From Escherichia coli (GTDB lineage Bacteria; Pseudomonadota; Gammaproteobacteria; Enterobacterales; Enterobacteriaceae), in assembly GCF_003334405.1 (NCBI RefSeq), contig NZ_QOWM01000018.1: a stretch of DNA of 64,000 nt, one strand, 5' to 3'. Positions 35,024 through 44,740 of the stretch are shown here, one piece after another; within the stretch, counting starts at the first letter, position 1, and each line of letters starts with the position of its first letter. A model generated the notes under the pieces. That model was not told the DNA's origin and ran no database searches. It worked only from the letters and a program-made list of their open reading frames with translations. Both the position numbers and the translations under genes were made by a program.

Positions 35024-35440
35024 GTCATCTCCCGGAGGAGCGAAGCTCCTTCTGCCGTCCGGGTCTTCGGGGATTTCCCCGCAGTGGACCTTTCCGACGG
35101 GGGACGCTCACCACGTCACGGGGCAGTTGTCCGGGGGCAGACGCAAAAGTTTTTGACGCCTGCGGCAAAAAGTTTTGTGGCTGGTACATCTCTCCCCTGG
35201 ATGACTGAAACGGGATGTGGTCGTGTATGTACCCCCGGAAAGTCCGTCTGCGGAGAACGGGCCGCAGGGCGGCGGCAGGCAGGCAGAGAGAACTGCGCCA
35301 TCAGGCGCAGTGGCCTTACACACCGTAAGGTGTGCAGGGAGCGCCGCATCCGGCGCGACCGGAGAAAACCGACGGCACAACAACGGCATGCGGTGGTCAC
35401 TGGTACACCACTCCCGCACAGGTGAAAACAGAGAAAACCG
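35024..35440. repeat. Frpo/ssi-like GC-rich repeat, copy A (family 1)
   Basis: Shares a conserved core (CGGAGGAGCGAAGCTCCTTCTGCCGTCC ... CCGCAGTGGACCTTTCCGA ... CGCAAAAGTTTTTG) with copies at 37890 and 44236. Confidence 0.55.
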
Positions 35441-35456
35441 CACGACATCTACAACT

Positions 35457-35550
35457 AAAAAAAGTGAAATTTCTTCACTTTTTTACACTTATTTATTGCG
35501 TTGATTTGGTGATTGTGATGATAAAATAAAGTGAAGTTTTTTCACTTTTT
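35457..35550. promoter_or_regulatory. Two palindromic operator-like sites AAGTGAA-N5-TTCACTT flanking a promoter-like region
   Basis: Palindromes at 35462-35480 and 35529-35547; TTGATT and TGATAA hexamers between; AAGGTG SD before ATG 35563. Confidence 0.4.
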
Positions 35551-35562
35551 CAAAGGTGTTTT

Positions 35563-35814
35563 ATGACCGGCTGGGAACTGCGAATCTGGCGAAAAAGCAT
35601 GCTCTGGTCACGCGAAAAAGCGGCCAGAGAATTTGGCGTGACACAGAGAACATGGCACGCCTGGGAAAATGCGGATCAGGTGGATGTCACCGTCTGGAGG
35701 ACCACCCAGGCACTTTCAGTCCGTGACCTGCTGCCTCACATGCAGGGGATGCGCAAGGCAGATATCATCAGGCGTCTGGAAAATGAACTGGGGGAAACGG
35801 CAGAGGATGTGTGA
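35563..35814 (+). CDS. Small XRE-like helix-turn-helix regulator
   Basis: 83 aa; HTH-like segment SREKAAREFGVTQRTWHAWE. Confidence 0.45.
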   Translation: MTGWELRIWRKSMLWSREKAAREFGVTQRTWHAWENADQVDVTVWRTTQALSVRDLLPHMQGMRKADIIRRLENELGETAEDV

Positions 35815-35844
35815 GCGTGATTCACAGCCTGGCTGAATGCCAGG

Positions 35845-36066
35845 CTACTGCTCATCAGGAAACAGTTTTTTCAGTTCTTCACCGGAAAGTCCGGTCGCCT
35901 CCTGAATCCGTTCCGGCGGCCAGCCCATATCCCGCAGCCGGCAGGCTATTTCCCGCGCCACTTCAAGAGCGCCTTTTTGAATAAGACGTTCTGCAATCGT
36001 CATGCTGTTTGCTCTGCTCCTGCTGGCAAAAAAGCCCGGGATTTTGCCGGGCTTTGCGGTTCTCAT
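35845..36066 (-). CDS. Small protein homologous to the C-terminal tail of the upstream Rpn nuclease
   Basis: Start ATG overlaps Rpn stop (TAATG); MTIAERLIQKG...IACRL...ATGLSGEELKK parallels Rpn tail MTIAERLEQKG...IACQL...ATGLSDDELKK. Confidence 0.5.
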   Translation of the reverse strand: MRTAKPGKIPGFFASRSRANSMTIAERLIQKGALEVAREIACRLRDMGWPPERIQEATGLSGEELKKLFPDEQ

Positions 36067-43287: not shown

Positions 43288-43345
43288 AATCATCCCCTTA
43301 TAATTGCTTATGTCCTGCCGGACGTTCGCGCGTCCGGCACCTCTC

Positions 43346-43585
43346 TTACTTAAGAATCCCGAAATCACGGATGGCATGGTTCATCCAGTACCCGGCACCG
43401 TCCTCAAAATTCCAGGTACGCCAGACCATTGTTCCGTTATTACGGACAACCAGGCGAAAATGTTCTCCGTGGTCATCCTCGATAAAGACGTTCCGGTACT
43501 GTGCGGCAACGGCTTCGGCATGTTTGCGGGTAAAAGGACCGTCAGGCAGTCCCTGAAGTATTCTGAAATATTCGCTCATTCTCAT
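43346..43585 (-). CDS. Hypothetical protein (79 aa)
   Basis: ORF between ssb and the ParB-like gene. Confidence 0.35.
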
Positions 43586-43636
43586 ATCTCCGGTGATGCC
43601 CCGCGCAGGGCGGGGCGGTTATCACAGTCAGGCCAG

Positions 43637-44167
43637 TCAGAACGGGATATCGTCTGAAAACCCGTAATCGTCACCCTCCGGCGGTTGCGGCTGAGGCTCC
43701 GGCTGCGCGGCCTTTCGTCCACGGCCTTTCGTTTTCGCGCCACCTTTTTTCGTGGCAGCCTCCGGCTGAGGCTGACCGCTGAACTGTGGTGTGCCGTCCG
43801 GCTGAGTCTGAGTTCCTGCGGCACGTCCCAGCATCTGCATGGTGCCCGTGGTTTTAACAAGGATTTCGGTGACGTAGCGGGTGACACCGTTGTTGTCCTC
43901 CCAGCTACGGGTGCGAAGCTGGCCTTCGATGTAGACCTGCGCGCCCTTGCGCAGATATTCACCGGCCACTTCCGCGAGCTTGTCGAACAGCACCACGCGG
44001 TGCCATTCCGTCAGTTCCTTAATTTCTCCCGTCTGTTTGTCGCGCCAGCTTTCTGACGTGGCCACCTGCAGGTTTGCCACTGCGCCCCCGTTGGGGATGT
44101 AACGGACTTCCGGATCATTGCCCAGACGCCCGACGAGGATGACCTTGTTGATACCACGTGCACTCAT
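43637..44167 (-). CDS. ssb: Plasmid single-stranded DNA-binding protein
   Basis: OB-fold N-terminus ([18 protein letters not shown]), Gly/Pro/Gln-rich linker and acidic tail DDIPF. Confidence 0.9.
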
Positions 44168-44235
44168 AAGAACCTCCTGACTGAAAGATGTGAGATAAAC
44201 CGGATACCGGCGACGGGACGTTCATGTGCCCCTTC

Positions 44236-44740
44236 AGAGGAGCGAAAGCTCCTCCTGCCGTCCACTTCACAGGGGTTTCTCCCCGCAGTGGACCTTTCCG
44301 ATGGGGGCCCGTTTACCGCCTCACGGGACAGCTGTCCGGGGGCGGACGCAAAATTTTTTGCCGGGTTCATGGCTAAAAATTTTGTGGCCGGTGCATCTCA
44401 CCCTGGACAGATGGAACGGGAGGGGGTTACGTCTGCCCCCCGGAAAGGTCCACAGCGGGGAAACAGGCCGCAGAGGTGGCGGCAGGAGGGAAGACTGCTG
44501 CGCCATCAGGCGCAGTTTCCTCACACACCGTCAGGTGTGCAGGGAGCGCAGGTTACGGCGCGACAGAGGCGGCGCGACCGGAACGGTCGCTGCAAGCCCG
44601 GGTTTTCACGCATCGGACCGTAGCGACAGCCCGAAACCGCGCCAGCGGGTTCGGCGGAGACTGGCGGGTGCGCAAGCAGCTGCCTGTCGGAGTCGGGCCT
44701 GACGACCGGATGCCGCCAGGCAGCCGGGAGCCGAAGTGGG
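44236..44740. repeat. Frpo/ssi-like GC-rich repeat, copy C (family 1), upstream of ssb
   Basis: About 500 bp, near-identical to copy B. Confidence 0.55.

Follow-up and report, generated by a model that had tools for sequence, protein, structure and literature searches.

The stretch of DNA analyzed here, which we call the window, comprises 64,000 nucleotides of an Escherichia coli contig (NZ_QOWM01000018.1, assembly GCF_003334405.1), and our subject is a set of three dispersed GC-rich repeats in it, copies A, B, and C, which resemble the Frpo/ssi elements of conjugative plasmids. The region in which they lie is the origin of transfer (oriT) and the leading region of a conjugative plasmid of the IncI type (MOBP/MPF_I). 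The IncI backbone genes nikA/nikB, trbA-C, ardA, psiAB, and ssb are present in the window, and more than 5,000 enterobacterial plasmid records match the 15-kb stretch around the repeats, with 812 of them covering at least 80% of it. The best match, pSNE2-1928 (97.5% identical), is typed as IncI-gamma/K1, MOBP, and MPF_I. Its annotation over the matching region starts with trbA-C, nikB, nikA, a small gene labeled MobC, DUF4942, a helix-turn-helix (HTH) regulator, an Rpn nuclease, two hypothetical genes, and ardA, and goes on with psiA, psiB, a ParB-like gene, DUF905, ssb, DUF1380, a second antirestriction gene, a DNA methylase, and DUF1281. The transfer origin itself lies to the left of the repeats:

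33148-33528, minus strand: nikA, directly left of the oriT core; nikB also lies to the left on the minus strand
33529-33573, plus strand: oriT core, an inverted repeat (AATTGTAATA...TATTACAATT) and then the nick-region motif CATCCTG|T

To the right of nikA, the plus strand reads AATTGTAATAGCGTCGCGTGTGACGGTATTACAATTGCACATCCTGTCCCG, that is, the inverted repeat followed by a P-type nick-region motif at 33566-33573. The motif and the nicked strand were recognized with YATCCTG|Y, the P-type nick-region consensus (oriT of RP4/R64). Because the motif stands on the plus strand, this is the transferred (T) strand. Its 5' end is at about position 33573, and the leading region, 3' of the nick, extends towards higher coordinates. 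The minus strand holds the operons headed by the repeats and the other genes of the ardA-psiB-ssb set, and three small open reading frames (ORFs) are on the plus strand. As the plus strand is transferred and the establishment genes are on the minus strand, the incoming strand is their template.

A repeat search of the window returned three-copy repeat families at all three sites, and MAFFT aligns the copies with identities of 82% between A and B, 87% between B and C, and about 79 to 80% between A and C. Together with the BLAST results given below, this places the three dispersed direct repeats, to which a preliminary description of this DNA had ascribed long near-identical stretches, far beyond chance. 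The sites given in that description hold, and the lengths are somewhat generous. The homology common to all three copies is shorter, about 326 to 333 nt per copy, and the excess in B and C is a 169-nt segment that is discussed separately. The GC richness is also clear, at 0.59 to 0.69 across the repeats versus about 0.50 to 0.58 in the flanking genes. A gap of 47 to 66 nt separates each repeat from the start of its minus-strand ORF, and these ORFs are, as had been described, a 283-aa gene, a 144-aa gene, and ssb.

As references for Frpo/ssi elements we used the five sequences of Supplementary file 4 of Samuel et al. 2024, in which ssi1 to ssi3 are defined by coordinates on AJ238399.1. The published ssi sequences match the window with BLAST E-values of 1e-69 to 1e-168, at the following positions:

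35033-35361, plus strand: ssi1 (copy A), 97.9% identical to ColIb-P9 ssi1 over 327 nt (35033-35359)
37891-38216, plus strand: ssi2 (core of copy B), 99.4% identical to ColIb-P9 ssi2
44234-44566, plus strand: ssi3 (core of copy C), 99.1% identical to ColIb-P9 ssi3

BLAST with the reference ssi and Frpo sequences revealed no further ssi copies in the 64-kb window. Because the identity to the ColIb-P9 references is 97.9 to 99.4%, the repeats are the published ssi1, ssi2, and ssi3 themselves, and what had been described as Frpo/ssi-like can be given these names. They share with the ColIb-P9 elements (AJ238399.1:1459-1787, 4353-4678, and 11381-11711) the order from oriT, the length of about 328 nt, and the downstream genes, including ssb, psiB, and psiA behind ssi3. 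The differences are a few point differences and a backbone that belongs to a close relative, IncI-gamma/K1-like; no functional difference is apparent. The three elements are located 1.5 to 11 kb 3' of the nick-region motif. Copies A, B, and C are very probably the class 1 single-stranded DNA (ssDNA) promoters ssi1, ssi2, and ssi3 of an IncI plasmid of the ColIb-P9/R64 type.

When folded with DNA energy parameters, the plus strand of each copy forms one long imperfect hairpin of about 230 nt, with a small 5' hairpin before it and three mini-hairpins after it. The minimum free energies (MFE) are listed here with z scores obtained from 100 dinucleotide shuffles:

ssi1, plus strand: long hairpin at about 35052-35278, mini-hairpins at about 35292-35357; MFE -96.9 kcal/mol, z -8.6; minus-strand MFE -80.8
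ssi2, plus strand: long hairpin at 37910-38139, mini-hairpins at about 38147-38211; MFE -102.1 kcal/mol, z -10.4; minus-strand MFE -90.2
ssi3, plus strand: long hairpin at 44255-44485, mini-hairpins at about 44497-44562; MFE -109.9 kcal/mol, z -12.6; minus-strand MFE -92.4

The plus-strand folds are thus 12 to 17 kcal/mol better than those of the minus strand. We also compared 13 distinct copies from 5 plasmids (the window and four relatives, of the IncI-gamma/K1 and IncK2/Z types). Their consensus fold has 99 pairs, and 99.5% of the cells are in standard pairs, compared to 42 to 49% with slid partners. Compensatory double changes occur at eight pairs, and none of 500 column shuffles reached the observed covariation score. 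Departures from Watson-Crick pairing are strongly one-sided, with 101 G:T cells versus 2 A:C cells, and in RNAalifold, run with DNA parameters, the plus strand reaches -68.7 kcal/mol (100 pairs) versus -48.2 kcal/mol (84 pairs) for the reverse complement. A G:T pair on the plus strand corresponds to a C:A mismatch in the minus-sense mRNA, and therefore the strand on which the fold is selected is the transferred one, not the mRNA-sense one. The preliminary description had expected these elements to fold in the transferred strand, and a conserved structure is indeed present there, as judged from the long hairpin (z -8.6 to -12.6), the covariation, and the strand asymmetry.

These results bear on the idea that the repeats are selfish or structural DNA, either miniature inverted-repeat elements or structured RNA 5' leaders, with no role as ssDNA. 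Long hairpins that resemble terminal inverted repeats, present in several copies per replicon and in thousands of plasmids, would fit such an idea, and a transcription start at the base of the hairpin would put the whole hairpin in the mRNA leader. However, all copies agree in their orientation to oriT and in where they lie with respect to the operon starts, and no signs of transposition were noted, although target-site duplications were not specifically looked for. There is also no match to an Rfam family: the covariance models, run over 30000-52000, gave only two sub-threshold chance matches, both outside the elements. An RNA leader is further contradicted by the G:T pairs, which would be C:A mismatches in the mRNA and place the selection on the plus strand. 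We regard this idea as scarcely credible.

The class 1 promoters of the F plasmid, Frpo1 (ssiD) and Frpo2 (Masai and Arai 1997, Cell 89:897; PMC9849209), belong to the same class (class 1/ssp1), lie in the leading region in the same orientation, and form the same kind of long imperfect hairpin. They share with the IncI elements a conserved core, CTGTCCGGGGG ... AT-rich apex helix ... CCCCTGGAC, with an invariant G:T wobble and an unpaired yATyT bulge. Moreover, Frpo2 and ssi3 both head an ssb-psiB-psiA operon. Unlike the ColIb-P9 elements, F ssiD can be aligned with each copy only across the central 80 to 116 nt (74 to 76% identity), and the lower stems show no sequence relationship. The three mini-hairpins with which the IncI elements end are invariant, and BLAST detected none of them in L005, the single IncF locus that was compared. 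As a separate observation, the bulge on the right arm (9 to 11 nt; 35185-35193, 38047-38055, and 44392-44400) is conserved even though it is unpaired, with the sequence GT-r-y-ATCT in the IncI copies and CATTT in the F-type elements, and it adjoins the invariant G:T wobble in the core helix CTGTCCGGGGG / CCCCTGGAC. This suggests a sequence-specific contact.

The position of the promoter boxes is clear for the F type and less so for the IncI type. A position weight matrix scan of the class 1 sequences found one strong site in F ssiD, TTGAGA-17-CATACT (11.3 bits), on the left arm and in T-strand orientation, and no site that is consistent across the IncI copies, which have no comparable consensus match. 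Across six F-type sequences TTGAGA does not vary, unlike its partner on the right arm, and the -10 box lies in a mismatched stretch. The IncI copies carry TGGACC on the left arm, at 35085-35090 in ssi1, 37945-37950 in ssi2, and 44289-44294 in ssi3. It is invariant in the 13 ssi copies, and its pairing partner (alignment column 220) is A in some copies and G in others. A variable internal loop lies 17 nt past TGGACC and aligns with the -10 region of F Frpo; two variants of ssi2 have the F-like string ACTGCCACGGC in this loop. With modest confidence, we propose that TGGACC would be the -35 box of the IncI type and the mismatched internal loop its -10 region, with a promoter on the left arm that reads towards the apex. 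Exact box coordinates are not stated in the text of the literature that we searched on these elements.

Three other placements were tried and rejected. The first has the -10 box in the conserved right-arm bulge (38047-38055 in copy B), which is attractive as this bulge is conserved though unpaired, and the -35 box at the apex. This would put the -35 box in the apical loop, and it is impossible for divergent relatives with an apical stem of 6 bp. The second takes the right-arm strand of the core helix, with TGGAC(A/T) as the -35 box, and has the -10 region in the right side of the internal loop. Here the spacing is consistent, but the -10 region is variable and noncanonical, and the orientation is opposite to that of the strong F-type promoter. 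The third combines an AT-rich UP element with TTGTGG (-35) and TGGACT (-10); its 17-nt spacer consists mostly of the extruded bulge, which gives the wrong duplex geometry.

Conserved regions of more than 300 bp that are repeated upstream of several establishment operons also mark systems under repressor control (PMC6294495). The repeats might accordingly be duplex promoters with operators for a plasmid repressor, resulting in classical zygotic induction as proposed for ArdK/ArdR of pKM101 and shown for Reg576 of p576, and a small HTH regulator gene does lie nearby, at 35563-35814 on the plus strand. Against this, a consensus scan (at least 9 of 12 matches) detected no duplex sigma-70 promoter on either strand within the three repeat regions. 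What is conserved is a hairpin with compensatory changes and a G:T bias on one strand, which duplex operators would not yield. In addition, Bates et al. 1999 reportedly found that the burst of expression needs no repressor but depends on how the genes are oriented in the transferred strand. We consider repressor control of these repeats highly improbable.

If the repeats are ssDNA promoters, they would control the following minus-strand genes:

34135-34986, minus strand: DUF4942 gene (283 aa), first gene behind ssi1 and first after oriT on the transferred strand
37405-37839, minus strand: 144-aa gene, first behind ssi2, followed by an 88-aa ORF and an Rpn-family nuclease gene
39531-44167, minus strand: ssi3 operon, with ssb (43637-44167), DUF905, a ParB-like gene (682 aa), psiB, psiA, and an ORF of 198 to 209 aa

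During conjugation, the plus strand would enter the recipient 5' end first from the nick at about 33572/33573. Each ssi segment would then fold into its imperfect hairpin of about 230 nt, the stem of which would imitate duplex promoter DNA. The host sigma-70 RNA polymerase would bind this hairpin and transcribe the incoming strand towards lower coordinates before a complementary strand exists. With the promoter on the left arm, the polymerase would start from the lower stem, read the right arm as its template as far as the apex, and then come down the left arm towards the genes. In this way, ssi1 would drive the DUF4942 gene, ssi2 the 144-aa gene and its followers, and ssi3 the genes for Ssb, the ParB-like protein, PsiB, and PsiA. 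Synthesis of the complementary strand would remove the hairpin and silence the promoters, leaving a transient burst of expression. Of this scheme, the identity of the elements, their position and orientation, the transferred strand, and the conserved, strand-biased hairpin come from our analysis, and recognition by RNA polymerase, ssDNA-specific activity, and transfer-dependent expression come from the literature on near-identical or homologous elements.

This literature is extensive: the elements have already been published, and our finding is correct but ordinary. Bates et al. (1999, Microbiology 145:2655) described the three repeats of the IncI1 plasmid ColIb-P9 as homologues of Frpo and proposed that they are ssDNA promoters. 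An in vitro study of ssi3 followed (Nasim et al. 2004, Mol Microbiol 53:405), and PMC6294495, which cites this work, states that three ssDNA promoters control at least 10 genes in ColIb-P9. Samuel et al. 2024 counted 13,089 Frpo homologues in 6,006 conjugative elements, and the GC richness of ssDNA promoters has already been noted in print. A PNAS study of 2023 treats the "ssi3 operon" as a named unit, with adaptive loss-of-function mutations in it. For the IncI1 plasmid pESBL (Wen 2025, NAR, PMC12672017), donor-elimination RNA sequencing and 5' rapid amplification of cDNA ends showed that six leading-region operons, each headed by a hairpin, are induced; induction reaches up to about 500-fold 15 min after mating, and the start sites were mapped. 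The claim in the preliminary description that the genes behind copies A and B belong to the early-expressed set agrees with the published work on these close relatives, ColIb-P9 and pESBL.

An alternative is that the repeats are mainly priming signals, where a short RNA made by RNA polymerase from the hairpin primes synthesis of the complementary strand in the recipient and downstream mRNA is secondary or absent. Both the term ssi and the first in vitro work on Frpo concern the synthesis of primer RNA, and F Frpo RNA primes complementary-strand synthesis in vitro (reviewed in PMC7690428). Support in vivo comes from a 2026 preprint (10.64898/2026.01.09.698686), in which rifampicin abolishes early conversion events near the ssp1/Frpo promoters in F, and three copies over 10 kb would suit discontinuous priming. 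However, every copy stands 47 to 66 nt upstream of an operon, in the sole orientation that makes the T strand the template. Deletion of Frpo1 or Frpo2 in F abolishes early expression of the downstream proteins (Couturier et al. 2023, PMC9849209), and the pESBL operons that are so strongly induced lie behind homologous elements. The two roles are compatible with each other, and priming as the sole function is unlikely; a mainly priming role appears improbable to us.

A polymerase that recognizes folded ssDNA has a precedent in phages and rolling-circle plasmids. In the RNA polymerase-dependent minus-strand origins of the filamentous phages f1 and M13, and likewise in ssoA-type origins, the folded single strand mimics a promoter, and the RNA that the host polymerase makes primes the complementary strand. 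Neither these origins nor the ssoA-type origins have any sequence relationship to the ssi elements, and they give only a short primer and no downstream mRNA. A comparison of Frpo with sso-type origins of rolling-circle plasmids is found in PMC7690428.

Several points weigh against the reading of the repeats as ssDNA promoters. The preliminary description had expected -35/-10-like hexamers in a long imperfect hairpin; the hairpin was found, but neither the consensus scan nor the position weight matrix scan gave a canonical -35/-10 pair in the IncI-type hairpin, and because of this the assignment of the IncI boxes relies on the architecture shared with F. Folding well beyond shuffled controls is also seen for the minus strand (z -5.2 to -8.9), a property that every long inverted repeat necessarily has. 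The covariation comes from a small set of related sequences, 13 copies in three paralogue lineages, and is supporting evidence rather than proof. Finally, expression and in vitro transcription of these very copies would have to be carried over from their homologues.

Three further hairpin elements, absent from the preliminary description, are present in the window:

39086-39430, plus strand: class 2 hairpin upstream of ardA; its right arm holds TTGCAT (39297-39302) and TAAGAT (39318-39323), separated by 15 nt
46040-46386, plus strand: class 2 hairpin upstream of a klcA-like antirestriction gene (45596-46021)
49959-50123, plus strand: long hairpin upstream of an operon with DUF1281, hypothetical, and DNA methylase genes, with TTGCAT at 50083-50088, a 15-nt spacer, and TAACGT at 50104-50109 on the right arm

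The hairpins at 39086 and 46040 are the published class 2 (ssp2) ssDNA promoters. They are 99% identical over 300 nt (the 39086 copy versus 46040-46339), contain internal inverted repeats of 32 nt, fold into a hairpin, and are 82% identical to the candidate Frpo' 4 of Samuel 2024. The right arm of each carries TTGCAT-15-TAAGAT with a 3x3 mismatch within the -10 box. The hairpin at 49959-50123 is probably the published class 3; the fold of 49890-50330 has a z score of -4.8, and the motif GCCCGG(C/T)TAA is common to this hairpin and class 2. In pESBL, class 1 comprises ssi1 to ssi3, class 2 the elements 5' of ardA and klcA, and class 3 the element 5' of M.EcoGIX (PMC12672017). The window has this full six-element layout, with the third class assigned as probable: as in pESBL and with the ssp1/ssp2/ssp3 types of F, there are three class 1 elements, two near-identical class 2 elements (ardA and klcA), and one element 5' of the methylase operon. 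The correspondence with pESBL is drawn from that paper's description and from the homology to ColIb-P9.

The longer extents originally given for B and C are explained by a GC-rich tail that is common to these two copies only (about 170 to 210 nt); copy A has no extension beyond 35361.

38217-38430, plus strand: tail copy 1, GC-rich, 3' of ardA and outside the published ssi unit
44567-44740, plus strand: tail copy 2, 3' of the klcA / DUF1380 / 63-aa operon

Its core (38218-38386 versus 44568-44736) is 96% identical over 169 nt. The tail is 92 to 100% conserved in at least 5,000 plasmid records, IncF included, where it always lies 3' of a class 2 operon and adjoins a class 1 element; in one IncF plasmid (L005), it is found at 14001-14173, about 55 nt from the third Frpo copy. 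This high conservation is probably because the whole segment on the klcA side is common to IncI and IncF at about 97%. Divergent Frpo candidates from Salmonella and from an insect-gut metagenome have motifs related to the tail at their 3' ends. That the tail is a structured element was rejected: its fold signal is weak (z -1.3 to -3.2), and no intrinsic terminator was detected on the minus strand between the class 2 operons and ssi2 or ssi3. The tail might act as an insulator or terminator that separates class 2 from class 1 operons, might offer another site for priming, or might block synthesis of the complementary strand. Equally compatible with the data is that the tail is a passenger in a larger duplicated and exchanged segment, and it seems rather unlikely that the tail, possibly with the three invariant mini-hairpins, is a separate undescribed functional module.

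Two other observations concern the surroundings of the tail and of ssi2 and ssi3. A 40-nt repeat (85% identity; 38486-38525 and 44862-44901), which contains the hairpin GGCAGGCGTAAGCCTGCC, follows directly on ardA and on the 63-aa gene, in the interval that separates each of these genes from the tail. In the IncK2/Z plasmid NZ_CP141242.1 (L004), a single hybrid element is found at 9001-9329, ssi2-like over the first 235 or so alignment columns and ssi3-like thereafter, and the whole ardA-psiA-psiB-ParB-ssb segment is missing; part of this segment is missing in L002 as well. A hybrid of this kind is what one would expect from homologous recombination of the ssi2 repeat with the ssi3 repeat.

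For the annotation of the window, which is where the value of this work lies, the repeats are to be labeled ssi1 to ssi3; current understanding is unchanged. The ssDNA promoters let a plasmid express anti-restriction, anti-SOS, and ssDNA-binding functions within minutes after entry, before it is double stranded, and such early expression is central to the way in which resistance plasmids evade host defences. The DUF4942 and 144-aa genes are best regarded as early establishment genes, which makes them candidate anti-defence genes. The 283-aa protein matches Pfam DUF4942 (E = 8e-51), in agreement with the annotation of the 97.5% identical plasmid, and also PHROG 6263 (E = 5.5e-18), a phage protein family that carries the annotation DNA methyltransferase; neither NCBIfam nor the PDB sequences contain a match to it. 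The 144-aa protein has no Pfam or NCBIfam family, and its PHROG matches are only to groups of unknown function.

Direct repeats are found around the start of the Rpn-family nuclease gene and a small ORF upstream of it (35845-36066). The first pair (35866-35975 versus 36078-36187) is 75% identical over 110 nt, and the second (35972-36003 versus 36220-36251) is 84% identical over 32 nt. This suggests that the small ORF arose by duplication of an N-terminal part of the Rpn gene. Finally, ATCCTG, the core of the nick-region motif, occurs 62 times on both strands of the whole window compared to 34.7 expected, a number that none of 100 shuffles reached; this excess likely results from codon or composition bias.

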